64,000 nucleotides of DNA from a virus (taxonomy: Duplodnaviria; Caudoviricetes). The DNA lies in the IMG/VR virus record IMGVR_UViG_3300022555_000032, positions 1 to 64,000 of that record; one strand, given 5' to 3'. Within the stretch, counting starts at the first letter, position 1, and every line of letters begins with the position of its first letter. The translations under genes and the position numbers were made by a program. The notes beneath the pieces are model-generated. The model had not been told where the DNA came from. It worked only from the letters and a program-made list of their open reading frames with translations, and ran no database searches. Below are positions 6,001 to 43,067 of this stretch, piece after piece.

Positions 6001-9000
6001 GCAATACCCAGGATAATCTCAGGGCCATGTATAAGTATGAGAACTATCATCTTTCTAATCCTAATATACTTCTTCCAATGATCCAGCATATCTTCGGATC
6101 GGTAAATATTCAAAAGATACTTGATGGTCAGCATACTCCTAAAGTAACAGGGATATCAGCATGGAGTAAAGATTCAGATATCATCATGCCGGAACAGTCC
6201 TTAAGCAAGATGTTTCTTCTTCTCTTCAACTCAATGCCTTTATGGGATTACAATACAAAGAAGATCAGTAGAGACGGAAGACGTAATCCTAAAAGGGTAG
6301 ATGCAAAGAATCTTGATACCTTAATGATGACTGTATCAACTCTTCTTCAGGAATCAGGCAAACCTATTAACGATAGATCCTTCTTACAAGCGTTTAAAGA
6401 CGTTATTAAGGCACACCCAGGGATTAAGTCAGGTCAGCAGATGGAACTTGTCAATACGGCTTATTCTTTCCTTATGGAGTGGGGAGAGAACCCAGAGAGT
6501 AAAGGTATAATTTATGATCCGGTAAAAGGAGAGTTTGTATCTGAAGAAGGTAGTGATCCTCCTATTGGAAGATGGGAAATGATCAATAATGCAGATATGT
6601 GGTCAGGTGCTCAAGGAACTCCTACAAGATCATTAGGAAGACAGTCTGCAGCACGACATGACTTTGAGATGGATTTTCAATCTATGATGGAGAACTATCG
6701 TGATGCTTTCTCAATACTTAAGACCTATTATCTTTCAAGATATTCCAGAAGGCAAGCTCAGTTTAATACCTACTTCGTAGACGGAACCTACTTTGACTTC
6801 AATACTAATACTAATAGTGATCTTAAGATATTCTTAAGCAACATCAGGGGTGTATTAAAAGACAATCTTTATACTACTGAAGGAACTCAGATAAATGAAA
6901 GCACAATCGATGCTATCATGCCAGGGGATAATCAACAGTATGACATTGACCTTGTAAAAAATCAGTTATTAAGGAAGGTAAAAGATGGAGATAAGTTTAA
7001 ATTCATTCCGGTACTTGGACATGACTTAGGAGTATCTACTGAACTAGTTAAATTTATGAAGTTCTTAGGACTTGATGGATTTAATGAAGAGATATTCTCA
7101 GCACTTAAGGAAGACTATCGTAGAGAAGTTCAGTCTAACCTGGTAACTGCATTTAAGTTATTGAAGTTAGGTGCTTTAATAACCAAGTTTCAGAATAATA
7201 ATCATTATGATGTCAATGAAGAAGGATCCGGTAAGAATTTCTTATCTGCTATGTCTTCCCTGGATACTCCCGATGCAAAAGAGATAGTATCATTGATCAA
7301 CTCTATTGAAAAGGACTATGCCAAGAAGGAGAATCTATTTGATCTTACAAACATATCCAATCTTAAAAAGGCTAATCTATACCAGGTAAGCCAAGGAATG
7401 AAACTTCCTGAGATCATGGATATGCATAAGTTCTTCGAAGGTATATCTACTCCTTACAACTACATTAAAGATGTCTTTGCTTCCAGAGTAGTAAGAGGTG
7501 TACTTGGAACTTATAAATCAGAGAATCCTTTAGGCAGTCTTATTGCTCAGATGTTTGCCGGAACTACTACTTCCAATAGCAGATTAGCAGTCGATATCCA
7601 AAAGAGAGCCGAAGATCATATTTCCAATGGACTGAAGATTGAGTCTCCATTCTTCTCGAAGGGAGAGAATGGTCAGCCAGTGTTCAATAATCCTATAATG
7701 AGCAAAAAGATCTCCATGGACTATCTCTATACCATGGATGGTGTTGAGGGATGGAAGAACGCTAATGAGTGGACTACGATGTCTGTAAACGATAAATTAC
7801 GTGGTCTATTCGAAGCATGCGTATGGGGCAATCAGATCATTACTGGAAGCAAGAGTAATGTTCCTTCCTTTCCAGCCTTCATTGATACTTTATCAGATAA
7901 GAAGTCAAAATACTTCACTGTTATCCGTTTCATGGACAAACAGTATGCTCAACAATCTTTATTGTTTACAGAAAGAGATCAGTATAAGCATAAGATCAGA
8001 GAGACTATTGTTAATGGTGCTGCAGTAGGGTCTATCCTTATTGACTTTGTGAAGTATTACGATGCTCTTAGGACTACTACTAAAGAACGGTTTGATAATG
8101 CCAAAGGAAACACCTTCAATCTTGTAAAGGATCGTGACTATGTAGTAAACAAAGACGGAAGCATAGGATTAGGCAATGCTATCATTCAGCCTAACAATCC
8201 TTATAATAACATTCACCTTGAACCTAATTCAAGCGACATTGATGTTTACAACTCAGCCAAGAAAGCACATCAGCAATTCTATGATAACTTAGTTGCTATT
8301 ATGAATGATGCTGCTTATCAGATGCCTACTCATATTGCCTCACAGTTTGCTACTTTCCCTGTAGAAGATATTTCATATTCAGAAGCTATAACAGATAAGA
8401 TCCAGGCTAAAGAATCAAAGAGTCTATCTGAATGGAGAAAGGAAGCTGAGAAACTAACTCATATCTCCCGTAATGAAGCCGGTGTAGTAGAAGATGGAGA
8501 GGATGATAATTCTAAAGCGATCTGGAAACATTATAAGACTATTCAGGACCATGCGGTTCAACAGATGGTTAAATCCGGATACAAGTATATTTCTTCAGAT
8601 GGTAATGTTATCTGGCACCCGATCATTGAAGCAGCTTACTGGGGCCACCATATCTTCAACGAATCAGTATCTCATTTGATCAGAGGAAACCAATTCGAAT
8701 ACCATGATGTAGTTGACTATATCAAAAGAGGAAGCGGTATCACCATTGAAGGACTGAATTATAATGTCAATCAGAATGAAGATAATATTACCGGAATAGC
8801 AAAGGAGAGTAGAATACTTATCACTAAGGATATTAAGTTTGATGATCCTTACTATGGAAAAACTAATAAGTTATTCGATGGTGCTATGTATCTTAATCCG
8901 GTAGATGCACTTGACTATGAGCATGCCATGGGTGGACTGATAGGTATCCTTGGAGACGGACCACAAAAGAATGTTCTCTTTCAGCATGATCCAGTAGCAT

Positions 9001-12000
9001 ACAACTCTCTTTATGTCAAGATGGACCACTTCCCACGATCAGCTTATGATTATGAGAATAGTGATATTGACAAACAGATGGTTCACATGATGCTTGGACC
9101 AGTTATTTCAAAATGGTTAACAGAGTATTACGAACCTCTTGTTAAGAATCCTTTGACTCCTGTTGAACTTGAATCTCTATCAGGTCAATTAAAGACCGAT
9201 ATAGAACGAGGGTACGATGATGAAGGTAATGTAGTCAAGATGATAGGAAACCTTCCTGTAACCATTAAAAACCGACTTCTTAGTGATTTTAATGATGCTA
9301 TACTTGATGTAAGCAGACATTTACAGAAAGACGAATGGATCATCAATGGAAAGGAATATGATACTAAGGAGTTAAGAAAAACGATGATCAACTGGATAGG
9401 CTTTGAAAGTACTATCAAGACCGGAATAACAAGAGTAAATGATCTCTTCAACTCCCAGGAAGGAGAATTAAGTCATATCGGAAAAGCTATTGAGGATCCT
9501 ACTTATGATCTTAACGCATTATTCAATAGTGATGATAAGCTGATTACTGTTAACAATGCCAATCTTAGACTTCAGACCATTACAGCACAAGGAACTGAAA
9601 GCACAATGAAGAACTATCCTACTCAGATATCTAATATTATAGGTATCATGGATAAGAACTCAGCCTATGGTAAAGCAATTCAAAATGCTATTGCCGGATT
9701 CGTAGGTGTAGCTGCAGAAAAACTTGATGCAATGTCTCCAAAAGAGATAACGGATATGCTTGCTAAACGAGGATCCAAATACCTTTACGAAAGAGGTGAT
9801 GGTAGTTTAATGAGCAAAATTCTTTCTGATCCTTCTATTGTGCCGGATGTAGTAAGAGCAAAACAGTTACTTGAAGTAGTCAACTATTTCAATGACTATA
9901 TCAAACCGGACATGCCAGGTAATACCTACATTCAGGAACCTTCTACACATCAGTTATTCGTAATCAAAGATGCTAATGGAAAAGAATTACTTCATGGATG
10001 GAGAGATCTTAACGGAACACAAAAGATAGATGTTCAGAAAAAGACTGGTATCATTTCCAGAAGAGGACTTCAGAGTGCTAGGTATGTAGTTGATAATTCA
10101 GAAATCAATCCTGAGACTGGTAAAGGATATACTAAGGAAGAGATCAAGTCAATCATTAATTCTGATCCTTCAAGAGTACAGTATCGTCCTGCAGATCTTA
10201 TCCTTGCTTATCCTAATGCCCGGGAGTTTGGAATAACTAATGAGAATACCCTTGCCTCAGTAGTATCATATCATCAGGATGGAAAGCTTTATAGTCTTTA
10301 TGAAGAATGGAATAATCGTTGGACTAATGAGATGTATCGTGATTTCTTTACTAATCTTTGGGCCGATAAGACTACTGATGATATCCTATTAGGATTTGAT
10401 GCTAATGTAAGCAAACAGATAAGAAGGAATGCTCAAAAGAGAACAGAGAAACTAGGTCGTGCTATCTTTAAGGATGATCTTGTAATAGCTGCAGCAAACT
10501 ACTTCCATAATTTCAATAATTCCCTTGATGTATTCTTTACCCGTATTCCTACCTCAAATGCTTCCTCAGCTTCAGTAGCCAGGATAGTAGGATTTGTTTG
10601 GGATAAACAGAACTCTGCAGTACTTAATCCTAATAAGAATCTCTTTGATGGATCCGACTTTGACTCTGACCCGTTACAGTTATACTTTAGGACCTTTGAT
10701 AGAGAAGGAAGACTTTCTCAGGAAGGAGAAGATAAGCTGGATGGATTTAGGAACAATCTCTTTGAAGCCTTTAGAGGTTATTACATGGACTCTACGCATA
10801 ACTTTGATATGGTGACTGAGCCTATCGAACTTCAGCGCTTAAGAGATATCAGAGACCACAAGATGGATACTGATAAGAGAACTCAGTTAGGATCCACTCT
10901 TGGAACGATGTTCGACATGGACTATGTTAACCACATGAGTAAGAACATGGTTGGTTTTATGGCTAACATAGAGAACTTTGTCGGTAAACTTCTTCATCTT
11001 TCATTCCAGGAGAGAACAACTCTTGCTGATTCAGGTGCCCTATCAAAAGAATTAGGACTACTTGTTGATCCTTCTCAGCAACAGCATATACCAAAAGCAA
11101 TATCTTTTATAGCCAATCTTATCAATGCTGCTACGGACTCCGCTAAAGAAGGAGGACTATTAGGATCTCTTAACCTGGACTATCAGATTACTAATCTTGT
11201 CCTTGGTATGATGTTAACCGGAACTCAGGAAGGTAACTTCACTGATGAAATATTCAGCCAGTTAGTATCTAATGAGGAAAAGACTAGGGGAGTAGTCGAA
11301 TCTCTTATCAATAAACAGAAAAGGATTAAGATTGACGATTATCATACTAATCTGTTAATGAGTCTTTCAGCTATTCGTAATACTTATAAGGATGCAAAAG
11401 ACGATGAGTCAGTAGCAATATGTAATCAATTCCTTAAGTATGCAGTAATCGGCCAGGCGGTCCGTAACTTAGGATCTATAGCACGGATTCAAAGCAGGGA
11501 ACTTGATGTTAAAGCTGCTAACTTCTACATGCTTAAAAATGAAGTTGAGTACGCACTTGGATCATCACTTGAAGACTTCCTTAAGTTATCAGAGGATCCT
11601 TCGTCTGAAACCTTTAAAAACAGGTATGCGGTTAATGAACAGATCGGATGGGTTGAGCAACATTCCCCAAGCAATAAATCAAAGAACAAGAAGGGATATT
11701 TATTCGAATCAGATATCCGGTCCACGATAAATGTTCCTTACATAGTTTCCCTTCAGCCTAACTTAAAGGCAATGGTCGTTGCCCTTAACTCAGCTTATAA
11801 GGCAATGACTAAGGTATTTGTTAACGAAAGGGTACAGTCTATTGATGGAACTCCTTTAATAATGAGTGTCATAAGCCAAAAACTTAATCCAAAGAATCCT
11901 GGTGGACTGAAATATGAAGCTCAGTTCGAAGCCTATGAGTTTGCTATGAGACAAACCTTGGTAGGACTATACCTTAATGATGAATTTACTGATTTAGTAC

Positions 12001-15000
12001 AAAGCACTATTGATGATAATGGAAAATCTTCTACAAGAAAATACAATCTATCTTCTAACTTTAGCCGTTACTGGTTTGCTGCCAACTTCCCCGATTATGT
12101 CAGGAATCTTAAGAATCAGTATACAAAGAATCTGTTTATAGATAGATTAGAAAGTCTATCGGATAAAAGACTAGGACTTACCAAGACTGTATTTGTAAAC
12201 AGTAACTACCTGAGTAATGCTCAAAAGGCAATGTATCACGAATCCTTTAACCAGCTTCCATTAGATGTAAAACGTAACTTTCATGCCTATCAACTCTTAT
12301 TAAATGGCTTTGAACAGCGTAATGGTGGTTATTTTGACTTAATGGACAAGGATATCGCTACTAACTACTCTAACTGGCAAAAAGAAAGAGCAACTAATTC
12401 AAGGATCTCTTCTTTATCTGATAAGATAGCTGAAGATATCATAGTAAAAAGATCAGATGCTTTCATAGATAGAGATAATAGCAAGAAACCATGGAAGACC
12501 TATTATAAACAGATTGGAAGTAAGTTCTTTAATCCAAGGATCTATAAGATGGTCAATGGTGAACCTACTCCTATTAATAACATCTATCCTGAATGGCTTA
12601 ATACCTATGGCGCTCTTGAATCAAATGTGTCTTATGAAAAGACCTTTAAGTATGCTACTCCTAAAGAACTAAAGATACTACATGAAAAGGGAACAATCAA
12701 CTTAGCCAGACCTTCTATTAGTCTTACTACCGGAAAGAAACTTGACGAAAAACAATCTGAATTCCATTATGTAAGAAGTGAAGATACTGTTGTTCTTCCG
12801 GATGGAAGTGTAGGAATTATCAGGAACCAGACCTATGAGAAAGATGGTGTAACAAAGGAGAACAATAAGCGTGTTGTCATTACTTTACAGCAACCTAAGT
12901 ATTATGCTAGGTTTGGACAATCAACGGTAAGGAATGGATCCAAGATGGCCGAACTCTTTGTTGATCGTTTAAAGAGGCTTATGCCAATGATCGATATTAA
13001 AATAGGTACTTCAATGGATACTGATGGAGCCTTGGCTAAATTCAACGATAACGGATCACTAACTATCAATGAAGAGTTATTATCACCGGAAACAGCTATC
13101 CATGAATTAGCACATCCTCTTTTACTCATTAAAAAGTACATGGATCCTGAAGGTTATCAGAAGATGGTAACTGAAGCCAATAAATTCATGGACGAAAATC
13201 CTGTCTTTGCTCAGAAAATGAGACAAGAGTATAATATCAATGATAAGGTTGCCTTCGAGATGGAGGTAATAGCAAATATCGTTGGTCTTAACTCCTTTAA
13301 GAATATGCAAGCCTATTTGAACTTCCATGGTATTACTCAACCGGATATCCAATGGAGCTTCTGGAAGCGAATGAGAATGCATATTGAACAGTTCTGGAGT
13401 AGTATGCGTAAGATCATAGGTCAAGTCTTTGGAATAGACAGATCATTCAAAGGGAATACCATATCTGATCTTTCGAACTATCTCTATGACTCATGGGTAA
13501 GTGGATCCATGGTAACTGCTATTACATCACAGGAATTATCAGCGATGATGAATGGTGGTACCTTCAGTAGTAGATTTGCCTCAGAGTCTATAAAGGACAC
13601 TGGTGGACTACTTAACGAACTTCGCAATACTTCCAATCAAGCTGAATGGACAGATGAACAGAAGATAGCTGAAGCCAGGAGATGCATTAATCCTCTAACT
13701 GGAAAAATGAGTGACTACTTTGATCCGGCTGAAACAAAGTTTGCTGAAACTGATTCACCAGCATCTAAGGATAAGCTTCTTAAGTTATACAAAGCCTTTA
13801 ATGGAAAGAGAAATGAATATGCTAGTCAATTCATTAGATGGATAAAAGAGACTGGTGGATCAACTTCTAAGGAAGCCTCTATAAAGTACTTTGGACAGAA
13901 CGAAAGGGGTGAACCATTAATCGCTACCGGAAACCTTGAAACATTAAAGAGACAACTTAATTTCGGATTTGAAGACACTAAGTACTATCTATATAATGAT
14001 CTTTCCGGAACCGAACACAAGGACCTTTATCATCCAGACCTTAAGATGGACAATGTCATTGTCTCAATTAACAAGATAGATGGTAGAAGAGTAGTTAATA
14101 TCTACTCTATAAGTAAGGAAAGGATTGGTGGAACATCTACCTTAACGAATGGAAAAGGATTGATTGATGGATTAATGAATATGCGTAATGCTGCAGTAGC
14201 CGGAATAGATTACAATAGCACAAATGAAGATGTTGCAGCTGTCGGAATAGGATTGATTCATCGTTACCTGGTTAACACCTTTGATGATGTTGATGTAGAC
14301 AACATAGGCTATATCAATGTAGCAATGAGTGAAAAGAAAACCAACGACCTCTATATGATTGATCCGGTAAGGAACAGAAGAAACATTGAGGCGCTTTCCC
14401 GTATTCCTTCATTCATGAGTAGTCTTTCTAATGGATTGATAAAGGAGATATTCCAATATACCAACTTGAGAGATGCTAATCCGAACTATGAAGAGATGTT
14501 AAAGAGCTTCTATAGATTCAATAATCAGGACGATCTATGGAAGAGCAATATGAATACCTTCATTCTTGATAAGAACAACCTATCTGATCAGGACAAAATC
14601 TCCATTGTAAATACCAGGTTAAGGACTTTGCTTGGAAACAGAACTGAAGATACCATGAATAAGTGGGGTCCAATGGATTTGAAGGAAGTTAACCTATTAC
14701 TTCATACTCTTAAGGATCTTCGTTACATAGGATTCATGTCGGGCCAGATGAATGAGTTTAATGGTCCTAACAAGTTTGAGATGCTTTTAAGCGATGGTCC
14801 AAGCATAAGTAATGATGATATCCAGTTTGCCCGTAGAGTTGCTACAGAGACCTCCAGGGGCATTGTACGAGATATGAATGAGACTAAGAAGAAGATCAAC
14901 TTTGCCTTCGATCATTTCAGAAAAGAATATGCCTCAACAAAGGTTTATCTTAATGATGCTTCCAAGACAATGTTCGATAGGCTATTTGCTACTATGACTG

Positions 15001-17216
15001 CCTATGATAATGGTACTCCAGTTGAAAGACCTAATGGATTTATCTTGTTCAGCAGAGACTCAAGAGAGGATAAATTCGCTCAGCAAGCTATTGATCGTGG
15101 ATTAACTGATGAAGACCTTAAAGCTTCTAAAGCATTAGTAGATGCTATTCACGAACAGATGGTTAAGAATTTCATGCATGCAAAGAATAGTCTTGGTTAT
15201 ATCTATAAGGCTGATGGAACTGAATACACTGTAGAAGATGCAGAAAAGGATCTATTAGCCGAAACCTCCTATCAAAAAGGAATGATTCCTATTATTCAGA
15301 TGTCTTCCAGCGAACAACTTTCCCAGGCATTTGGAGATATGGACTTCGCAGCCTTTGGTAAAGCTTTAAAAGCAAAGATGTTCGAAATGACAAATATGAA
15401 TGAACTCTTTGCCAATATGGATCAGCAAAATTCTATAGATGAATCGTCAAGCACATTAGGAAATGTCTTCTGGTGGCAATTTGGGTTCAAGCAACTTACA
15501 GATAAGACGGAATTTGGCTATAAAGGAAGGATGGAAACCATGCTTGGCTTGAGACTTGAATCTAAACCAGATGGTACACCTTTCTGGAATGTGGTACGTG
15601 AAAATGGACAAACTCAGTCTAAAAGCGAAACAGTATCCCGGGATCTTGAGATGATCACCAACTACTTCCTTCTTACAAGCAAGAGAAGTATTGAATATGA
15701 AGAGAATGTTCTTCCGGTAATCAATGGTATCAAAGTACACCTGAGAGACCTTAAGACTAATGCTAACTTAGCCAAGGAATTTGAGACTGAAAATGTCATT
15801 AAGTACCTTGACTTATTTACCGATCATGCAATAAAGAGTAAAAGGATTCCTACTTTCGGACCTGGTGGAGTAAACTTGGATAAGAGTGTATTGGTTGCTC
15901 AGAACATAATAGCGCCCTACTTCCTTACCTTAAACTTCAATATAGGTATTATCTCAGCTATGAGTAATGGTCTCTTTGCTCACATTGAAGGAGTAAGTAG
16001 GACTCTTGTTAAAGTCTTCCACGATGCCGATATGCCTTACTTTGGAGAAGGAAACCTATTAACAGCTTCAGCCAGATTCTTTGATAATTTTGCTCTTATG
16101 GGTCAAATCATGCAGGAATATCAAGTAATGGATATGTCTGAAATGAGCATGGTAAGCGGAAGGATCAGAAGTAGGACTAAGAAATCTGTAATATCTGACT
16201 TTTGGGGCAACTGGTTTAACTGGTCTTCTGACTTCTACGCAAGAGGTGTAGTTGCAATGGCCCAGATGATGAAGGATGGATCCTGGGATGCTCATTACAT
16301 TAAAGAAGATGGTACTCTTGGATATGATGTAAAAAAGGATAGAAGGTTCTATAACGAAGATGGTACAAGAACTAAAGAACAAGAAGTCCTTTACGAGAAT
16401 ATGAAAAGAATGCAGATTAAAGACGGAATCATTAAGCAAGGAGAGGAACTTAAGTTAGCCTATGATCTTCAGACCATGGGAACACTTAAATTCTTATCTG
16501 ATAAATATGTAGTAGGATCCTTTGATAATACTGTTAAAGCTATGATTGGAGCTTCAACTGTTGGAGCTGCCTTTAAACTCTTTAAGACGTGGTTCTTCTC
16601 CAGGGTGACCAATGCTTTTCAGAACGGAACTGATCTTGACTCAGGTGGCTTCTATGTAACCGAGAAAGATAAGAACGGTAATGTTATTCCTAAATGGCAA
16701 AGGATTCATGTCGAAGGTTACTTAAGAACCTTATGGGATTTCGAAAAGGCTATAATGGTAGGAAAGGGAACTTCTTATTTAAAAAATACCACTGTAGAAC
16801 AGAAACAGAACTTGTATAAACTTGCTCTAAATCTTACCTTATCAATAGGTGGTATCATGATGTTTGCTGCATTAGTACAGGGATTTAACTCTACTGATGA
16901 AGAAAGAAAGAAGAAACCTATTCCTCCTTATCGTTTAATCCGGAATATTAAATACAGTCTTGAATCATTACTGGTCCTTCCAGTAATCTTTGAAATGATA
17001 CAGTCTCCATTTGCTTCTATGAACATTCTTCATAATATCTTTATGGATCCTTTCGGAAACTGGAGAATAGCTGCAGGTAAATTTCCAGCGCCTACTCAGA
17101 TTACTTCCATAGAAGAAGTCTTTAAAGGAATGGACCAGGTTCGTAAGGATAGAAAAGAAAAGGCTAAAGAAACTTCAGAAGAAAAAAAATTAGAGAATTT
17201 AACCATTAATCAATAA
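15..17216 (+). CDS. Giant virion RNA polymerase polyprotein (crAss-like), 5'-truncated; SF1 helicase + degenerate PD-(D/E)xK + zincin + double-psi-barrel RNAP + zincin + helical C-terminal domain
   Basis: RNAP signature R-I-P (aa 3510) followed by GSDFDSD (aa 3546-3552); Walker A AYSGTGKST (aa 364-372) with SF1 motifs; HEAWH (aa 1768) and HELAH (aa 4363); frame is open upstream of nt 15 (D-I-I-N-M), so the true start is probably outside the window. Confidence 0.85.
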   Translation: MLENTFGEKGKLTNWMEANLGFIQKKVENSDETKEHSPLLNNPLGRIDDNLKQSYEDWYKNKLKPNVITPIQAKIDRSIADKKIKQMRNMANREELGISFIEMLNVAFAGKLDKDAEKTLADAEKALDDLSKMEIDGKQYERLYDLLDKYLNLDDTKPETFPTRNAIEKRFIETHHIIVQAYTKLSGKLGPVEQELLDSLGEYVYDLNSFEVRYAIRNDKSGDVGLLTAESYAKGKDVFTKIRFQDNEKRIALGRQDPLSEEYSFFQEYSLYLAHRINVAGTEGSPTWEQLYQMYDDVLNSEFTKEGNPIYGENSRLGTVEQQEALIHLLGWYYNPSQKYLIDNIKKDQYVKNRTWDNAILLRAYSGTGKSTWMFQHFLNAILLQKGITDGKFKATVVLPNSGLTKTFNENLKTLNEKFPKLELQIIYSDDLIKGNIIDADSDFVWLEEASLYRKEDVANIHKNIGDKKVIIVGDDGQTTPDGSNPTWYTFQGVCEKTLPMTESFRGNSLTVFNDLFSWGRQQFFNPMSTTGIDWSTMSKGKWKFGQDGRGPIGLRVVRSKEEILQDFKEFMGIIKGQDMEFPSEKENAILIVATTLDKQILLKEHPDLQNFTDNIKTIQYDLDYIMANDKYREENISGIEKEFVFIYSDWSANNNIEKKDIQDLATETGTSPIDPYVASTTLGKTQARHILTATTRAKRFLVMINPEANESTQTIDHALPDDKIDGFGPHAQETTPEQVQLMQRISSAAIEGRHNYTKTPGTGGSVVQSDDLIFNSELTTNAKKELATNENIIKFTSQLSPTFNTNDQHVTNLTQLTSLLSESTKPSEISTSNALANNVHREAILCALDPDRSEVKGIALMEQFLDVYMKVTSVTYKKEDIPDIAETVFHRWKMPIIQSDLSKLINNPLAVIAHNVSFNGFSGEPPIIEVVGYDKKTNKPIVNITDFTFANVTEASEYSKSKLGVYAALAEANGAIINRLNIIPVQINSKGKFMGTNYGETINLSMEERSKYVLNGKSIVGSTTPTTQTFASVEQMLQSARTVDYDYAGIKIGGYYFNRTTGTRDQVTGLEINAKGDVVVNIATKNGSNKAFKLDTFTQTFSFASMKDINPLYKESAVSSFNGDKVTGTSHAFAIAPLIGSSLLNGNFYQSNIIKLRQLVRDKIRSLGPLTKRLYVNGKDTLGLVSINDNGNAIEAYDNWKYVVTNELDESQIIGLISNKLFNKLLRDKIYVKRTKTYENQPIRPVSWSSIEELKQKIQNDFNNNPNINIAKYVEDSTSSNYSLEKLNEFYNTINSIITDEQLYHIFKSFGLHIVSMDYESEYDYKDAEGKIPLKIFADPNSEISKAAVDYINTGNEKVFDLLNRDGFTQRYVPADQKNQDIAKQANVELNIYRLKMIKMLHDGIEVKTTIQDTKRNLIYSDEPVSFKDFTENMEARGFIFEMKGNNIDIATKRVKVGKNKKTFFTITAKTPEKTYIEIRFDGSRLGTDLHSVISTLLSGLEPDITLQGMGNVFDDLDKLGDKIGEMKGIADEAARKITVGQAVQNLRDAFDELPVVQFFRHNMSVFNEQMKTNEAFRTYASQFFDVGLHSSKKTQELKPKGVTYQYQLQMISDFLKGLTVDKNVSTDGSIRLNNETEGFYLYNTPYTDSKDTVNPKNITTNVSAIGEPMVFTLRDTNIPKNSTIRFMQRGITNPSDIKMTNMDQVTREVYRIIGQRLTDNDRIYLKSPEEMKAMFNDDLYGAMLDAAIYLTKLGDGTLGNYFAGRHEAWHFVLHNLLNNETENRILELTKKEMVKKGLANSIEDITDSQAHEYGANMFMREDYKKHTLPGRIYQTIKRFLTWLKITAPDINWWMRKIDSGKYADAPILQNELEGVMFPMKSNWEYGSDKAHDRLKKTFGSDDRWTSIVSDRVMPELMDHSPYSRHFFEARNAGSKNMINRTIDAFLDKESQFGQERVTINQTINGENGEESVVHRFQLLVSEMTTEDYMVAMSSNTQDNLRAMYKYENYHLSNPNILLPMIQHIFGSVNIQKILDGQHTPKVTGISAWSKDSDIIMPEQSLSKMFLLLFNSMPLWDYNTKKISRDGRRNPKRVDAKNLDTLMMTVSTLLQESGKPINDRSFLQAFKDVIKAHPGIKSGQQMELVNTAYSFLMEWGENPESKGIIYDPVKGEFVSEEGSDPPIGRWEMINNADMWSGAQGTPTRSLGRQSAARHDFEMDFQSMMENYRDAFSILKTYYLSRYSRRQAQFNTYFVDGTYFDFNTNTNSDLKIFLSNIRGVLKDNLYTTEGTQINESTIDAIMPGDNQQYDIDLVKNQLLRKVKDGDKFKFIPVLGHDLGVSTELVKFMKFLGLDGFNEEIFSALKEDYRREVQSNLVTAFKLLKLGALITKFQNNNHYDVNEEGSGKNFLSAMSSLDTPDAKEIVSLINSIEKDYAKKENLFDLTNISNLKKANLYQVSQGMKLPEIMDMHKFFEGISTPYNYIKDVFASRVVRGVLGTYKSENPLGSLIAQMFAGTTTSNSRLAVDIQKRAEDHISNGLKIESPFFSKGENGQPVFNNPIMSKKISMDYLYTMDGVEGWKNANEWTTMSVNDKLRGLFEACVWGNQIITGSKSNVPSFPAFIDTLSDKKSKYFTVIRFMDKQYAQQSLLFTERDQYKHKIRETIVNGAAVGSILIDFVKYYDALRTTTKERFDNAKGNTFNLVKDRDYVVNKDGSIGLGNAIIQPNNPYNNIHLEPNSSDIDVYNSAKKAHQQFYDNLVAIMNDAAYQMPTHIASQFATFPVEDISYSEAITDKIQAKESKSLSEWRKEAEKLTHISRNEAGVVEDGEDDNSKAIWKHYKTIQDHAVQQMVKSGYKYISSDGNVIWHPIIEAAYWGHHIFNESVSHLIRGNQFEYHDVVDYIKRGSGITIEGLNYNVNQNEDNITGIAKESRILITKDIKFDDPYYGKTNKLFDGAMYLNPVDALDYEHAMGGLIGILGDGPQKNVLFQHDPVAYNSLYVKMDHFPRSAYDYENSDIDKQMVHMMLGPVISKWLTEYYEPLVKNPLTPVELESLSGQLKTDIERGYDDEGNVVKMIGNLPVTIKNRLLSDFNDAILDVSRHLQKDEWIINGKEYDTKELRKTMINWIGFESTIKTGITRVNDLFNSQEGELSHIGKAIEDPTYDLNALFNSDDKLITVNNANLRLQTITAQGTESTMKNYPTQISNIIGIMDKNSAYGKAIQNAIAGFVGVAAEKLDAMSPKEITDMLAKRGSKYLYERGDGSLMSKILSDPSIVPDVVRAKQLLEVVNYFNDYIKPDMPGNTYIQEPSTHQLFVIKDANGKELLHGWRDLNGTQKIDVQKKTGIISRRGLQSARYVVDNSEINPETGKGYTKEEIKSIINSDPSRVQYRPADLILAYPNAREFGITNENTLASVVSYHQDGKLYSLYEEWNNRWTNEMYRDFFTNLWADKTTDDILLGFDANVSKQIRRNAQKRTEKLGRAIFKDDLVIAAANYFHNFNNSLDVFFTRIPTSNASSASVARIVGFVWDKQNSAVLNPNKNLFDGSDFDSDPLQLYFRTFDREGRLSQEGEDKLDGFRNNLFEAFRGYYMDSTHNFDMVTEPIELQRLRDIRDHKMDTDKRTQLGSTLGTMFDMDYVNHMSKNMVGFMANIENFVGKLLHLSFQERTTLADSGALSKELGLLVDPSQQQHIPKAISFIANLINAATDSAKEGGLLGSLNLDYQITNLVLGMMLTGTQEGNFTDEIFSQLVSNEEKTRGVVESLINKQKRIKIDDYHTNLLMSLSAIRNTYKDAKDDESVAICNQFLKYAVIGQAVRNLGSIARIQSRELDVKAANFYMLKNEVEYALGSSLEDFLKLSEDPSSETFKNRYAVNEQIGWVEQHSPSNKSKNKKGYLFESDIRSTINVPYIVSLQPNLKAMVVALNSAYKAMTKVFVNERVQSIDGTPLIMSVISQKLNPKNPGGLKYEAQFEAYEFAMRQTLVGLYLNDEFTDLVQSTIDDNGKSSTRKYNLSSNFSRYWFAANFPDYVRNLKNQYTKNLFIDRLESLSDKRLGLTKTVFVNSNYLSNAQKAMYHESFNQLPLDVKRNFHAYQLLLNGFEQRNGGYFDLMDKDIATNYSNWQKERATNSRISSLSDKIAEDIIVKRSDAFIDRDNSKKPWKTYYKQIGSKFFNPRIYKMVNGEPTPINNIYPEWLNTYGALESNVSYEKTFKYATPKELKILHEKGTINLARPSISLTTGKKLDEKQSEFHYVRSEDTVVLPDGSVGIIRNQTYEKDGVTKENNKRVVITLQQPKYYARFGQSTVRNGSKMAELFVDRLKRLMPMIDIKIGTSMDTDGALAKFNDNGSLTINEELLSPETAIHELAHPLLLIKKYMDPEGYQKMVTEANKFMDENPVFAQKMRQEYNINDKVAFEMEVIANIVGLNSFKNMQAYLNFHGITQPDIQWSFWKRMRMHIEQFWSSMRKIIGQVFGIDRSFKGNTISDLSNYLYDSWVSGSMVTAITSQELSAMMNGGTFSSRFASESIKDTGGLLNELRNTSNQAEWTDEQKIAEARRCINPLTGKMSDYFDPAETKFAETDSPASKDKLLKLYKAFNGKRNEYASQFIRWIKETGGSTSKEASIKYFGQNERGEPLIATGNLETLKRQLNFGFEDTKYYLYNDLSGTEHKDLYHPDLKMDNVIVSINKIDGRRVVNIYSISKERIGGTSTLTNGKGLIDGLMNMRNAAVAGIDYNSTNEDVAAVGIGLIHRYLVNTFDDVDVDNIGYINVAMSEKKTNDLYMIDPVRNRRNIEALSRIPSFMSSLSNGLIKEIFQYTNLRDANPNYEEMLKSFYRFNNQDDLWKSNMNTFILDKNNLSDQDKISIVNTRLRTLLGNRTEDTMNKWGPMDLKEVNLLLHTLKDLRYIGFMSGQMNEFNGPNKFEMLLSDGPSISNDDIQFARRVATETSRGIVRDMNETKKKINFAFDHFRKEYASTKVYLNDASKTMFDRLFATMTAYDNGTPVERPNGFILFSRDSREDKFAQQAIDRGLTDEDLKASKALVDAIHEQMVKNFMHAKNSLGYIYKADGTEYTVEDAEKDLLAETSYQKGMIPIIQMSSSEQLSQAFGDMDFAAFGKALKAKMFEMTNMNELFANMDQQNSIDESSSTLGNVFWWQFGFKQLTDKTEFGYKGRMETMLGLRLESKPDGTPFWNVVRENGQTQSKSETVSRDLEMITNYFLLTSKRSIEYEENVLPVINGIKVHLRDLKTNANLAKEFETENVIKYLDLFTDHAIKSKRIPTFGPGGVNLDKSVLVAQNIIAPYFLTLNFNIGIISAMSNGLFAHIEGVSRTLVKVFHDADMPYFGEGNLLTASARFFDNFALMGQIMQEYQVMDMSEMSMVSGRIRSRTKKSVISDFWGNWFNWSSDFYARGVVAMAQMMKDGSWDAHYIKEDGTLGYDVKKDRRFYNEDGTRTKEQEVLYENMKRMQIKDGIIKQGEELKLAYDLQTMGTLKFLSDKYVVGSFDNTVKAMIGASTVGAAFKLFKTWFFSRVTNAFQNGTDLDSGGFYVTEKDKNGNVIPKWQRIHVEGYLRTLWDFEKAIMVGKGTSYLKNTTVEQKQNLYKLALNLTLSIGGIMMFAALVQGFNSTDEERKKKPIPPYRLIRNIKYSLESLLVLPVIFEMIQSPFASMNILHNIFMDPFGNWRIAAGKFPAPTQITSIEEVFKGMDQVRKDRKEKAKETSEEKKLENLTINQ
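10656..10670 (+). other. RNAP catalytic DxDxD motif (DFDSD)
   Basis: gac ttt gac tct gac, 38 codons after RIP at 10542; matches the spacing in two-barrel RNAPs (NADFDGD; DFDID in phi14:2-type enzymes). Confidence 0.85.
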
Positions 17217-33788: not shown

Positions 33789-34688
33789 CTATTCCTCTGT
33801 TGGAAGGAGATCGTCTGTCGTAGGTTCCTTATCTTGCTTATTAAGGTATGTTTCCAAGTCATAGTCATCTGATGTATGGAAGATTTCATCAACAAGGTTT
33901 GAAAGATAGTTCTGATTAACCTCAGTAATCTTACCTGAAGCTAAATCAGCCTGAATACGATCAATCATTGCATTGAAGTAATGAATATCAACACCTATGA
34001 GTTGATCATACATGATTTTAGGATTCTTAAGATCAAGAGCATTAAGCTGAAAAGCCATCTTAAAGATATCGCCAGCGCTTATTGTCCATCCTCTGGTCAA
34101 GAACTTCCTTAATCTAAAGAATGATGCTAAAGGATATAAGGAACCTACATAGCGTAATTCTTTAGCAAGGATAGCTTCCATTGAATCGGGATTAAGTCTC
34201 AGTTTACCATCTTTCGATAACCAGTAGGACTTAACATGAACAAAGTCATAGTTCTTATGGATTTCTTCTGCAGGTCCATAGAACCGGATGATAAGCTGAA
34301 CCTGATTAGTTAAAGAGATAGCATTATCTGTTATTACAGCTGGATAGAACTTCTTTCCTTTGTAACAAGGTCTCTTTATACCATCTGATTTAATCTGAAA
34401 ACGGATTCTTCCATCTGGATCCTCGACAATCTTTGTATTATTCATCCAGGTCTCATTCTCCTTGAGTAGTAATGAACGATAATAATTACATACCGCTAAG
34501 ACTGTTTCTTTATTGGTAAAATAGATATCAAAGTCATTAACCTCTTCGTTAAGGACTAGTGATACTATTGCCCCACCAGTAATGATAGAATTGTCTTTTA
34601 CTAATTGCCTTACCTTTTCATCTGTTATTGATTTAAGGAATAAGGCAAACTGACCTCTGAGGATCTTTTCACACGTTATAGCTTTCAT
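33789..34688 (-). CDS. Pol-beta superfamily nucleotidyltransferase
   Basis: ITGGAIVS ... NDFDIYF (GG + DxD), FDF-like YDFVH, RLRKFLTRGW. Confidence 0.7.
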   Translation of the reverse strand: MKAITCEKILRGQFALFLKSITDEKVRQLVKDNSIITGGAIVSLVLNEEVNDFDIYFTNKETVLAVCNYYRSLLLKENETWMNNTKIVEDPDGRIRFQIKSDGIKRPCYKGKKFYPAVITDNAISLTNQVQLIIRFYGPAEEIHKNYDFVHVKSYWLSKDGKLRLNPDSMEAILAKELRYVGSLYPLASFFRLRKFLTRGWTISAGDIFKMAFQLNALDLKNPKIMYDQLIGVDIHYFNAMIDRIQADLASGKITEVNQNYLSNLVDEIFHTSDDYDLETYLNKQDKEPTTDDLLPTEE

Positions 34689-35971
34689 ATTGTTTTTGCT
34701 AATTGTTTAATTACTTTCTTATTGCTATTGACTAGTCTTACAATCTCTTTATGATATGGGGAATCATCATTATTTAATCCTCTTGCCTGAACAACTTTCA
34801 TTTCCGATAAAGAGAATTCTATTGTTTCTAATCTCTGGTTATCTTTCCTTGCCGATAGTATTAATGAGTCTTCATCAGCATAGTATTCATTGCTAAATAC
34901 GCAATGATTAAGGCTATCTCCTTCTATTACAAACTCATTAACATCTTTTAGAACTACTACTGAGAAATTATCATTAGAGAACTGAAGAGGGAAGAACTTA
35001 CTTTTAGATTGTTGATAAAGGATATTGGCTTCTGCTATCTTAGCTTTTAGTTTAGCAATACCTTCTTTTCTTCTTCTTTCATTACTCTTTCTGATATATC
35101 TCTGGTGTTCTAATTTGAGATCAACAGGACAGATGAACTTAGGGTTGTAGATGTCCTTTTCAAACGATATGAGCATGTCTATCTGATCAAGCCACGTAGC
35201 TACATCTTTAACAAGATAGTTGTTCCTGATGCATATTCTGATTTGAGGCCAGTACTCTTTGATCTTTTGATTATACCTATGATATTCACTAAGAAGATTA
35301 AACTGACCAGTCTTGATCAATGTCTCTGTTTTTGATTCGGATAGGATTATAGAGAATAGATAAGCCGGATGAAGCTGATGAAAACTATACTTAAAACCAT
35401 TTCGTCTTAAAGTCTTAAGATAGCGTTTGCCTGGACAAATATCCTTTCCATAGGTATAATATTTGTCTTTAATGTTCCGAATCTCCATGTCAGATCCCCA
35501 AATCCATTTGTCTCCATATCCAAAAGCATTATCCTTTACGGCTCTTACTACACTTAATCCATCTTCTCTTATCCAGTGCTGAATGACCTCCATGGAACTA
35601 TATACAGCCTTCTTACCAGCATAACAGCGCTGATGAATCCAAACAATCCTTACTATCTGATAGTTCTTATGAGTAGACATATAGAAATAATACTCTTTAT
35701 CGAACTTATGCCTTATACGTCCTTCTAAGACCTTTAGGTCGCATCCACACTTAGGACAAGTAAATCCACCTACTTTAACTAGAAGTGATCCCTTAACGTC
35801 TGAATTAGGCCATTTATGACCACATTCTAAGCAAATAACTTCATGCTTTGTCTTATAAGCATATTTCTTAAAGAGATTCTTTCTGGCCCAGGGAAGAGAT
35901 GATTTGATAATTGGAGAAAGAGACTTAGATAGATGATCGACTTCAATCTGAATCTTTGTCTTTGGTTTCAT
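34685..35971 (-). CDS. pcfJ: PcfJ-like protein
   Basis: CLECG/CPKCG N-terminus; EGDSLNHCVF..EYY...SLILSARK...LETIE.SL....VVQARG.NN. Confidence 0.85.
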   Translation of the reverse strand: MKPKTKIQIEVDHLSKSLSPIIKSSLPWARKNLFKKYAYKTKHEVICLECGHKWPNSDVKGSLLVKVGGFTCPKCGCDLKVLEGRIRHKFDKEYYFYMSTHKNYQIVRIVWIHQRCYAGKKAVYSSMEVIQHWIREDGLSVVRAVKDNAFGYGDKWIWGSDMEIRNIKDKYYTYGKDICPGKRYLKTLRRNGFKYSFHQLHPAYLFSIILSESKTETLIKTGQFNLLSEYHRYNQKIKEYWPQIRICIRNNYLVKDVATWLDQIDMLISFEKDIYNPKFICPVDLKLEHQRYIRKSNERRRKEGIAKLKAKIAEANILYQQSKSKFFPLQFSNDNFSVVVLKDVNEFVIEGDSLNHCVFSNEYYADEDSLILSARKDNQRLETIEFSLSEMKVVQARGLNNDDSPYHKEIVRLVNSNKKVIKQLAKTI

Positions 35972-36185
35972 TAGAAATTTTCTTTACTTCTTCAATGAAG
36001 GCTCTACAATGACGACCATCTTTAGTCTTTCCGTATAAGAAATAGTTAAACTGTGTTCCTACTTTTCTTACACATGAAGGAAAATCCCGTATGATGAATC
36101 TTTCACCTGTCTTTACAAGATTTTCTCCTTTATAATCTTTAGTTAATTCTAATGTTTCACCTATGCAAAATCCTGGATCTTTCAT
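35943..36185 (-). CDS. Hypothetical protein inserted between pcfK and pcfJ
   Basis: 80 aa. Confidence 0.5.
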   Translation of the reverse strand: MKDPGFCIGETLELTKDYKGENLVKTGERFIIRDFPSCVRKVGTQFNYFLYGKTKDGRHCRAFIEEVKKISNETKDKDSD

Positions 36186-36604
36186 TAGAACAAACTTAAT
36201 TCTTCTGTTTTAGCAACTTCTTTCTTAGCTGGAATAATAGTAGGTGCCTGTTTCTTTCGCATAGAGGCCATAGCATCATCCTGGACCTTTTGGATAGCTT
36301 CTTTACGTGCTTTGTCTTTCTCTTCTTGAGTAAGCTCAACGGTATGATTAACCACTACTGTAGCATCAATAGCCTTTCCTATATCGATGATCTCTTCGTC
36401 ATAGTAGTGTACTGCCATTGAATAGACTTCTGCATCTGTAAAGCCATTAATACCGCTTTTCTGAACAGTATTTAAGATATAAGTACAACAGTCTTCAATG
36501 TTCTTCTTATCGTTCTTAAACTTGACTGCAAAGAGTTCATCCTGTTCTGCTTTTACTTCAAGATGTTTCTGTATTGCTGCTTTGAAAAAATCAGATCTTT
36601 TCAT
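36185..36604 (-). CDS. acrIIA9: PcfK-like / AcrIIA9-family Cas9 inhibitor
   Basis: FK..I..L...A..DELFA....K...DC...ILN.V..SG..G.TD.EV.S.A.HYYDE...VVVNH.VELT.EEK..ARKEA...ELSLF collinear with AcrIIA9 as recalled. Confidence 0.75.
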   Translation of the reverse strand: MKRSDFFKAAIQKHLEVKAEQDELFAVKFKNDKKNIEDCCTYILNTVQKSGINGFTDAEVYSMAVHYYDEEIIDIGKAIDATVVVNHTVELTQEEKDKARKEAIQKVQDDAMASMRKKQAPTIIPAKKEVAKTEELSLF

Positions 36605-37324: not shown

Positions 37325-37517
37325 GTTTAACTTCTTTATCGTTTAATAATACCAATCTGTTTAAAGGAACTATTGCTTCAACTTTAGCCTTGGATTGACA
37401 TAAAGCCTTATCTTTTTCCACCAATCTCATAATCCTTACTGGTATTCCTCTTGAATTAGTAACCTTATACCACTTTACAATAAGGTTAGGACTATTATTG
37501 ACCTCTGGGTACCTCAT
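37305..37517 (-). CDS. Hypothetical protein
   Basis: 70 aa. Confidence 0.45.
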   Translation of the reverse strand: MRYPEVNNSPNLIVKWYKVTNSRGIPVRIMRLVEKDKALCQSKAKVEAIVPLNRLVLLNDKEVKHGKDKK

Positions 37518-37749
37518 TGGTCTTAATAAGTTTCATTAGGTCAAGTAATCGGATCATATAAGGCGCATAGACTTCATTACCAAGATTAGTCCTTACAGTT
37601 AGCACTCCGGCTTCAATACACTTCTTAGGATCGCTTATCTTAAGCCAGGGATAGAGTTGTATAGGTCCATCTGGAATGCCGTTAGACTTGAAGAAAGACT
37701 CTATCTCGTCAATCTTTGCTTTCCAGTGTGCCTTGGTTGGATTTGACAT
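37495..37749 (-). CDS. Hypothetical protein
   Basis: 84 aa. Confidence 0.55.
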   Translation of the reverse strand: MSNPTKAHWKAKIDEIESFFKSNGIPDGPIQLYPWLKISDPKKCIEAGVLTVRTNLGNEVYAPYMIRLLDLMKLIKTNEVPRGQ

Positions 37750-38023: not shown

Positions 38024-38220
38024 AAAGCATTATCTTTTAAGAATTTATTTTTACCATCAGTATCTACAAAAACAATCTTCTTAGCCTTACTAATGACATG
38101 ATCAGTTGATTCTTGTTTAAAACACCAGATATTTACCTGATCGAATGTATGTTTTTTAGCACAACTAAGAAGATCGTCTCTTGAGAATGACAGAAATCTA
38201 TTATCTGGATCCCAAATCAT
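38020..38220 (-). CDS. Hypothetical protein
   Basis: 66 aa. Confidence 0.5.
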   Translation of the reverse strand: MIWDPDNRFLSFSRDDLLSCAKKHTFDQVNIWCFKQESTDHVISKAKKIVFVDTDGKNKFLKDNAL

Positions 38221-38630
38221 TAGAAAACAAATTGATTAAGCTTATAAAGATCAATCTCATTGTCTTCAATCATAGTTGCAAGCATATTCCTTGTACCTTC
38301 ATCATCACCAAGATCCTTAATGATCTCCTTTTGCTTGATCTGGATAGTCTCATAGCCGACTATGATCTCCCTGAAGGCATTTTTAGGACCGTTAAGATCA
38401 CTTCTGAACACATCTAAGGACTTTGTATCAACCGTATAAGGATCGCCCATCCCAACGATTCTTTCAGCTATCTTATCAGCATTATCTTCTGCCTTTTGAT
38501 AAATTGATTCAAAGAACTTATGAAGCTCAAGGAAGTTAGATGCTTTGATATTCCAATGAGCATTTCTGGTATTTAAAAAAAGATTCCAATAGAGATAACT
38601 AAGATCTCTCAATTTGTCAACTGTTGTCAT
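38220..38630 (-). CDS. dps: Dps-family ferritin-like protein
   Basis: TRNAHWNIKA.NFLELHKFFE.IY......DKIAERI. Confidence 0.85.
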   Translation of the reverse strand: MTTVDKLRDLSYLYWNLFLNTRNAHWNIKASNFLELHKFFESIYQKAEDNADKIAERIVGMGDPYTVDTKSLDVFRSDLNGPKNAFREIIVGYETIQIKQKEIIKDLGDDEGTRNMLATMIEDNEIDLYKLNQFVF

Positions 38631-42425: not shown

Positions 42426-42555
42426 TAAAATAAATTATGAAAAATCAGATAAGCAAAAGAAATGAATATGCTAAACGGTATTGATTAAATTTTCCCCTCT
42501 CTTTTCAACACCTATGCTTACACCAGCTTCCTTTCATTTCTTCGCTCAAGACTAA

Positions 42556-42670
42556 GACATATGCTAACTGAGGTAACTAGGAGTTATCACTACCCCATGG
42601 ATCCAGATTTCGATCCCCATTGTTGCCTGTTTCACTTGACTCACCCCTTCCCGAGAGGATAACATATGCC
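42556..42670 (-). ncRNA. Candidate multibranch structured RNA
   Basis: Closing pairs GGCATATG/CATATGTC and GTTATC/GATAAC, inner GGATC/GATCC; GC-rich in non-coding DNA. Confidence 0.35.
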
Positions 42671-42851
42671 TTAAATATCATCTTCTCTTGAATCTATTTC
42701 TTTCTCTTTGTTCATAGTCAGCACGAACTTCTGCCTCCCTACTTTTATCAGTAATGAAGATGATTGTCTTACCACCATTCAACACTATCGGATATTTGTC
42801 TTTTACAGATCCACAAATTACTCAATAGAATCAAACCATCCGGCAATATAT

Positions 42852-42897
42852 ATTGTGGAATCTATGTCAAAGATACAATCTGAAAGCAATTCACAAC
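42852..42897 (-). CRISPR. Solitary type II-C (Bacteroidota) CRISPR repeat unit, no cas genes
   Basis: GTTGTGAATTGCTTTCAGATTGTATCTTTGACATAGATTCCACAAT, 46 nt, GTTGTG...CACAAT termini; 29 of first 32 aligned columns match the B. fragilis II-C repeat as recalled. Confidence 0.8.
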
Positions 42898-43035
42898 TAA
42901 TCCCTTGTTGTTGATCAAGAATATCAACCTTAGCTCTCCTTTTACGTTCCATTTCTTTAAACTCTTTTCTAGTTGTAATTCTAGAAGGAGTAACCGCATA
43001 CCTACGTTTCATAAAGATTTAATTAGATTGTTAAA

Positions 43036-43067
43036 CAAATGTATGAATTATGATAGAATGTTAGCAA
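43036..43067 (-). promoter_or_regulatory. Host-type promoter upstream of the CRISPR repeat
   Basis: TTG-N21-TACATTTG on minus strand. Confidence 0.55.

Follow-up and report, generated by a model that had tools for sequence, protein, structure and literature searches.

Features at the Locus

On the minus strand of the window (the whole stretch of 64,000 nt analysed, positions 1 to 64,000 of IMG/VR virus record IMGVR_UViG_3300022555_000032), the 46-nt unit of the form GTTGTG...CACAAT reported in the initial annotation was confirmed (Table 1). Two features that had been missed there are that the unit lies within a called open reading frame (ORF) of 64 aa, and that 58 nt of host array flank stand directly behind it. 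Unit and flank formed a block of 104 nt (42794-42897), located about 3 kb into a leftward gene block (20081-45683) amid small unannotated ORFs, and the unit was co-directional with the surrounding gene block.

Table 1. Position (window coordinates) and strand of the features at and near the repeat unit; L164, L168 and L170 are metagenomic CRISPR loci.
Feature	Position	Strand	Details
PcfJ-like gene	34685-35971	-	PF14284, 115 bits
PcfK-domain gene	36185-36604	-	PF14058, 152 bits, E 1.2e-44; leftward block, 6 kb from the unit
Leader piece, almost certainly host-derived, 58 nt	42794-42851	-	55/58 identical to L170 6704-6763; E 1.7e-20 alone
Called 64-aa ORF	42818-43012	-	38 native phage codons plus 26 codons through the host block
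Full-length type II-C CRISPR repeat by sequence, 46 nt, GTTGTG...CACAAT	42852-42897	-	45/46 to the L164 and L168/L170 repeats
Promoter-like motif in the repeat, TTG-N18-TATCTTTG	42868-42896	-	Bacteroidota -33/-7 pattern
Candidate former protospacer, 30 nt, native phage	42898-42927	-	Where the newest spacer would stand; guide of any crRNA from the unit
Promoter-like motif TTG-N21-TACATTTG, Bacteroidota type	43036-43067	-	TTG 43065-43067; TACATTTG 43036-43043

The complete virus record spans 85,427 bp, with direct terminal repeats and an estimated completeness of 100%, and the genes of the phage are arranged in three strand blocks. In agreement with the earlier description of a phage without cas genes, cas9, cas1 and cas2 were all absent. 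The portal and the large terminase matched PHROG families. The nearest annotated portals were those of crAss-like Bacteroides, Flavobacterium and Cellulophaga phages, and identity to them was only 22-25%, so that by its portal the phage would be distantly crAss-like. A single ORF of 5,733 aa spanned window positions 15-17216 (plus strand).

The ORFs neighbouring the unit matched no Pfam and no PHROG family, the region from 41.5 to 44.5 kb had zero blastn matches in INPHARED, and searches of IMG/VR with the neighbouring gene and the portal did not find close kin. Farther along the leftward block were a PcfK-domain gene and a PcfJ-like gene (Table 1), with an 80-aa ORF between them (window 34685-36604, minus strand) and, near the pair, a DUF6965 gene (37495-37749) and a ferritin-like gene (38220-38630). 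The Cas9 inhibitor AcrIIA9 carries a PcfK domain (PMC6739104). Directly downstream of the block, window positions 42470-42700 (minus strand) were poor in ORFs and had a G+C content of 0.41-0.42, against 0.36 genome-wide; folding of this stretch was not significantly above that of shuffles (z -1.39), and it had no Rfam match.

The Repeat Unit

At up to 3 mismatches, the unit occurred once in the window (0 occurrences in 100 shuffles), and its 16-nt head had no other exact copy in the window or in the whole 85,427-bp record, which upholds the earlier statement that there is no second full copy. Within 150 nt on each side of the unit no sense-strand partial repeat was found, alignment scores being below the shuffle means. 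Rfam gave nothing at gathering thresholds, with sub-threshold CRISPR-DR49/50 matches on the unit, and the local RNA fold at the unit was no better than that of shuffles (z -0.63).

Compared with the array repeats of five metagenomic loci (L164, L168, L170, L160 and L169), the phage unit differed at the last base alone; its identity over the full length was 45/46 (97.8%) to the repeats of L164, L168 and L170, and 43/46 to the array repeat of a Bacteroidota MAG (G001). The near-identity to arrays that stand beside cas9, cas1 and cas2 with no fourth cas gene, together with the complementarity of the 5' part of the unit to the tracrRNA anti-repeat encoded beside cas9, places the unit in the Bacteroidota class of 46-47-nt type II-C repeats. 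The likeness is far beyond chance and, judged by its sequence, the unit is a genuine type II-C repeat, as first proposed. The closest repeats are those of uncultured environmental Bacteroidota and not that of B. fragilis, with which the unit was then compared.

SRUFinder (Camara-Wilpert 2023) requires that identity and coverage to a known repeat be 90% or more and that no full or partial (>70%) repeat lie within 100 bp. The phage unit had 97.8% identity over its full length and no such repeat near it. SRUFinder also masks confident ORFs, an intergenic location being needed; the phage unit is inside the called 64-aa ORF, itself a chimera read through host non-coding DNA. The designation of the unit as a solitary repeat is right as to its single copy number, but the unit is not isolated, being part of a 104-nt leader-repeat block fused to an ORF.

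Cognate Host Loci

A search for the host repeat, proposed in the initial annotation as a check, led to cognate arrays. Scanning one genome per species with the 21-nt head of the unit returned at least 120 loci. Among the loci listed, nearly all titled records were Bacteroidota, most had copies spaced about 76-77 nt, and the best full-length match was 43/46 (L068), in genome G001. This genome had three arrays plus a locus made up of Cas9 (TIGR01865, 470 bits; RuvC_III and HNH), a 227-aa ORF, Cas1, Cas2 and a repeat, and a tracrRNA-like element was also present upstream of its cas9. Because of the unannotated ORF between cas9 and cas1, the G001 locus is type II-C solely by the absence of Csn2 and Cas4 signatures. 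The ORF itself (227 aa; L125:4841-5524) had no Pfam hit.

Scanning metagenomes with the 3' half of the repeat returned the arrays of L164 (21 copies), L168 and L170 (about 42-43 copies), L160 and L169. L168 and L170 are the same array, and their shared spacers were uninformative on array polarity. The best locus was L170 (contig Ga0118677_10000064, 196 kb; repeat 45/46), in which a tracrRNA-like gene divergent from cas9 was followed by cas9, cas1, cas2 and the array; since it has no fourth cas gene, its layout is that of type II-C. The L170 anti-repeat was at about 625-645, divergent from cas9, and was followed by a tail with a terminator hairpin. The L170 cas9 (684-5340) was found in two overlapping ORFs, one of 649 aa (bridge helix) and one of 910 aa (HNH and RuvC_III), a split caused either by a frameshift or by a sequencing or assembly error. 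A tracrRNA beside cas9 was also seen in L167.

Leader Piece and Borders of the Block

Among all loci retrieved, the only BLAST match of the phage sequence downstream of the unit was to L170, where the 60 nt 3' of the unit matched at 95% right behind the cas2-proximal repeat. When phage and L170 were compared from this anchor, identity was 7/30 in the 30 nt upstream of the repeat, 45/46 in the repeat, 29/30 and then 26/28 behind it, and again 7/30 in the following 30 nt. Over the 104 nt of the block identity was 100/104; the left border was exactly at repeat base 1, and both borders were sharp. On the strength of this match, the block is almost certainly derived from a host.

In type II-C arrays, transcription from repeat-encoded promoters is reported to run toward the leader, which is the variable end, and the repeat has its GTTGT end on the side away from the leader (Hoikkala 2021, PMC8092290). 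With this polarity, the leader is the flank that faces cas2, and, by its sequence context, the copied unit corresponds to the leader-proximal repeat of the host array. New II-C spacers are inserted at the leader-repeat junction, beside that repeat (PMC8092290). The leader piece also holds a decayed repeat-like stretch in register (about 11/23 positions matching by eye), which paired weakly with the anti-repeat (-13.9 kcal/mol, equalled by 16/1000 shuffles).

A second junction was found in a Logan contig of run ERR4193254 (L171, 1,166 nt), in which the 870 nt upstream of the unit and the initial 34 nt of the repeat were both identical to those of the phage. After these 34 nt, L171 (871-1166) switched to a different repeat 3' end and then to unrelated DNA, in which a terminator hairpin stood as far from the repeat as it does in the L170 and G001 leaders. 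Against 401 genomes of the order of G001, this downstream DNA gave low-complexity A-run matches only. L171 arose either through real recombination at the repeat or as an assembly chimera (k=31) across the shared 34-mer; either way, the phage co-occurs in ERR4193254 with a host that has a closely related array.

These junctions bear on a use of the block as DNA, either as an integration sink for Cas1-Cas2 or as a homology handle with which the phage would recombine with host arrays and disrupt them. The block includes the II-C spacer integration junction, in L171 the first 34 nt of the repeat link the phage with a different host-like leader, and integration through solitary repeat units (SRUs) was proposed by Faure 2019, as cited. 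However, L171 is equally explained as an assembly chimera, no expanded phage-borne array was seen, and 58 nt of leader may not suffice; a use at the DNA level is accordingly considered quite unlikely.

The Chimeric 64-aa ORF

The first 38 codons of the called ORF scored 0.146 in codon usage (true genes 0.189 +/- 0.111; shadow ORFs -0.141 +/- 0.156), a score reached by 2/100 shadow ORFs. The repeat-encoded part had a non-coding score (-0.05), and the stop codon fell in the host-derived leader part. By these scores and the host match, the 64-aa ORF is a chimera of a small phage gene and the host block. The frame opening right behind the block (42681-42794) was weakly coding-like, its score being reached by 10/112 shadow ORFs, which fits, but does not prove, a small gene split by the insertion.

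Database searches with the 64-aa ORF gave no relatives except those of the same phage in two other assemblies. An ERZ1426625 contig (3,121 nt, an independent assembly) held an identical 64-aa ORF and ended 25 nt past its stop. Its end coincides with the right border of the block, at which an assembly graph common to phage and host would branch.

That the locus is ordinary protein-coding sequence, in which the likeness to a repeat is coincidental or the peptide is the functional product, would agree with the calling of the ORF by gene callers and with its coding-like N-terminal part. Identity of 100/104 to non-coding host DNA cannot be chance, and effectively refutes a coincidental likeness. 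Also, the codons encoded by the repeat scored as non-coding, and the ORF had no homologues past the same phage and no Pfam or PHROG match. This account is scarcely credible.

Proposed Origin by Recombination

The order of phage sequence, first repeat and leader is the expected product of recombination between a protospacer and the leader-proximal spacer. Spacer-protospacer recombination between phages and CRISPR loci was reported in Varble 2019, as cited in PMC8616872. In the proposed course of events, the host would have acquired a new spacer from the small phage gene and placed it beside the leader-proximal repeat. Phage DNA would then have recombined with this leader-proximal spacer, and a second crossover in the A-rich leader would have led back to phage sequence. 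II-C spacers have their PAM end on the leader side (PMC8092290), so that recombination of this kind swaps the PAM for the repeat; with the repeat in the place of the PAM, that spacer would no longer direct cleavage of the phage.

The candidate former protospacer (Table 1) belongs to the coding-like N-terminal 38 codons and had 7/30 positions in common with the host spacer in the corresponding place. When 1,568 spacers (1,350 from 120 sampled genomes and 218 cognate metagenomic ones) were compared with the whole phage, the best match was 22/30 and not significant. As a matching spacer was not found among these, the recombination step stays a model. It is the simplest route of capture, and it is given a modest preference as the route that was followed.

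A wider proposal, offered tentatively and rather doubtful, is that the solitary repeat was caught near its birth, and that Cas9-type SRUs and decoys like the RNA anti-CRISPRs (Racrs) arise through recombination of phages with the newest spacer that targets them, as the undamaged leader fragment and the exact border on the spacer side would show. In this case, the immediate gain would be the loss of the PAM, and therefore escape, and decoy activity, or use of the junction by Cas1-Cas2 or in repeat-repeat recombination as in L171, would be later gains.

Promoter-like Motifs

The TTG-N21-TACATTTG motif, earlier put forward as an upstream promoter, was indeed present on the same strand as the unit, 23 nt before the ATG of the ORF; from 20 to 46 kb, the minus strand has only one other motif of this kind. 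The motif was not enriched, however: genome-wide, 9 motifs of this type were found and 9.2 were expected from shuffles, and because it is no commoner than in shuffles the motif alone is weak evidence of a promoter. The TTG-N18-TATCTTTG motif inside the phage unit was present in every repeat of the cognate arrays too. An active motif here would give transcripts that begin close to the 3' end of the repeat and run into the leader piece; in the arrays its predicted start point would be about 10 nt before the next spacer, which is consistent with the reported repeat-encoded promoters of II-C arrays (PMC8092290). Sigma-70 promoters and intrinsic terminators were at or below chance.

Predicted Pairing with the Host tracrRNA and the Decoy Interpretation

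In silico, positions 2-23 of the phage unit paired with the L170 anti-repeat through 22 bp with one bulged C, and co-folding with the L170 tracrRNA gave -50.4 kcal/mol for the phage unit and the host repeat alike. The pairing with host tracrRNA that had been predicted is therefore borne out at this level, in that the first 23 nt would pair as does the host's own repeat. According to the mechanism proposed, leftward operon transcripts would carry the repeat, and the repeat would pair with the host tracrRNA and load Cas9 with a guide for the phage's own PAM-less site alone. The resulting inert Cas9 complexes would compete with host crRNAs, the transcript acting as a Racr-like decoy crRNA.

The sequence adjacent to the repeat could, instead, be a programmed guide (a viral scaRNA or mini-array) directing Cas9 to the cas9 promoter, a host gene or a rival phage. 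Viral scaRNAs made of guide and repeat exist, and the repeat-like stretch of the leader, in register, pairs weakly with the anti-repeat. Against this, candidate guides had no above-chance match in the cas9 and tracrRNA regions of L170 and G001, and were unmatched in the rest of the phage and in other IMG/VR contigs; the 30-60 nt upstream and the leader 30-mer matched nothing in host cas loci, phage or IMG/VR, and the 20-mer of the downstream 58 nt was absent from other IMG/VR contigs. Moreover, the arrangement of 30 nt plus half a repeat is simply the host leader. A programmed guide is very unlikely.

Returning to the decoy, 10/12 other viral contigs with solitary II-C-type units had them co-directional with the flanking genes, and 2 had them antisense. 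Recombination alone should be blind to orientation, and the co-directional bias thus hints at selection on the RNA. The flanks of these other viral solitary units had no homology to the sampled hosts. The PcfK/AcrIIA9-family gene in the leftward block counts toward the plausibility of a decoy. With a copy this young (100/104), and with searches that turned up no diverged relative of the phage, selection on the present unit is unreadable.

The fusion of leader and repeat to a phage ORF points to recombination as the mode of capture, for which no RNA function is needed; the leader piece and the disrupted ORF would look like a plain recombination scar. The block could then be a footprint without RNA function, kept through PAM or protospacer escape or as a neutral sequence, with the pairing to tracrRNA being inconsequential. 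The repeat was captured along with a leader fragment, both borders of the block are sharp, with an exact one on the left, the ORF is disrupted and chimeric, and the copy is very young; in addition, L171 joins the same phage flank through the repeat to another host-like leader, as expected from ongoing exchange or from co-occurrence with such hosts. On the other side, tracrRNA:Cas9 would be expected to bind any sense transcript that contains a perfect repeat, the sense orientation prevails in viral solitary II-C units (10/12), and SRUs of other types were functional when tested. A footprint without RNA function is a realistic possibility, although it is held to be improbable on balance.

The interpretation of the unit as an RNA decoy, made in the initial annotation, is thus favoured by the II-C identity of the repeat, the phage having no cas genes, the co-directional placement and the predicted tracrRNA pairing, and is weakened by an origin through capture that requires no RNA function. 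Whether the block would have a measurable decoy effect on Cas9 is judged, from its sequence features, to be evenly balanced. The full explanation, in which a host block was captured by recombination and gives rise to a decoy crRNA, may hold or fail with about equal probability.

Two recurrent elements in IMG/VR contigs (mostly of about 20-60 kb) kept only the first 22-23 nt of the II-C repeat, that is, the head that pairs with tracrRNA. One was found in L126, L130, L132, L142, L144, L145, L153, L154, L157 and L159, and the other in L127, L133, L138 and L151. Both stood directly behind a co-directional gene, and in the first group the head was flanked by the arms of an 8-nt inverted repeat, with a hairpin behind them. 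These head-only elements may be truncated decoy or scaRNA-like genes.

Comparison with Known Systems

In Bacteroidota, Cas9 systems are common, and the most abundant phages of this phylum include the crAss-like ones. To our knowledge, inhibition of a type II system by a solitary repeat has never been demonstrated, and Racrs have been proven for types I and V only.

Viral SRUs were described by Faure 2019, as presented in PMC8616872. In the Racr study (Camara-Wilpert 2023, PMC10651486), nine candidates from both CRISPR-Cas classes (I-C, I-E, I-F and V-A) all inhibited, and the supplement lists II-C units of the GTTGTGA type in IMG/VR viruses as Racr candidates. The kind of element found here is therefore already known, viral II-C solitary repeats having been catalogued. 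Like SRUs and Racrs, the phage unit is a single host-like repeat in a cas-less virus; it has a promoter-like motif upstream and shares its gene block with a member of an anti-CRISPR gene family. Unlike in the proven Racrs, whose repeat is bound directly by Cas proteins (PMC10651486), a type II unit must act via tracrRNA; and unlike the listed SRUs, the phage unit is in a called ORF, which SRUFinder masks, and is accompanied by 58 nt of host leader.

In a preprint by Feussner et al. (bioRxiv 2026, 10.64898/2026.06.01.729453), phage sgRNAs and viral scaRNAs are reported to act against Cas9 by sequestering it with tracrRNA and by silencing the cas9 promoter. RNA inhibitors of Cas9 have thus been described; the earlier remark that no Cas9 case was known referred to crAss-like phages, and Bacteroidota and crAss-like phages are unmentioned in that preprint (10.64898/2026.06.01.729453). 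The phage unit resembles the RNAs of Feussner 2026 in having a repeat part that would pair with host tracrRNA; there, tracrRNA and Cas9 are sequestered and the elements lie near anti-CRISPR genes. Those elements share their guide with host regulators of the cas9 promoter (for scaRNAs, a host scaRNA or tracr-L), and the unit was without such a match in L170 and G001. Compared with viral scaRNAs, its guide had no above-chance match in the cas9 and tracrRNA regions of these two loci, the true host genome not being among them. Unlike the sgRNAs, it has no fused tracr tail; the downstream sequence matches the 3' half of the repeat only weakly and in inverted orientation.

Virus-borne mini-CRISPR arrays that act in conflict between viruses (Faure 2019, Medvedeva 2019) are reviewed in PMC8616872. 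What they have in common with the phage locus is that the virus lacks cas genes and that a repeat is followed by 30 nt and then by a partial repeat-like stretch. Unlike in those arrays, the 30 nt plus partial repeat of the phage are part of the 58 nt of host leader, and match no other virus in IMG/VR. The junction itself is of the form that spacer-protospacer recombination (Varble 2019, as cited in PMC8616872) predicts: the end of a protospacer, the repeat and adjacent DNA of the locus. The case cited from Varble 2019 concerns staphylococci and a route of CRISPR-locus transduction, whereas here 104 nt are fixed in the phage and the matching spacer was not found.

As a II-C example with its cognate tracrRNA, cas9, array and leader identified, the phage unit would allow a direct test of whether a lone repeat blunts Cas9. 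The co-captured leader provides a concrete and checkable origin for viral solitary repeats, namely recombination at the newest spacer, and such an origin would tie together escape from CRISPR, the transfer of genes out of CRISPR loci and the way in which RNA decoys evolve. What is new relative to the known kind is thus the co-capture of a leader with exact borders, together with an identified cognate locus.
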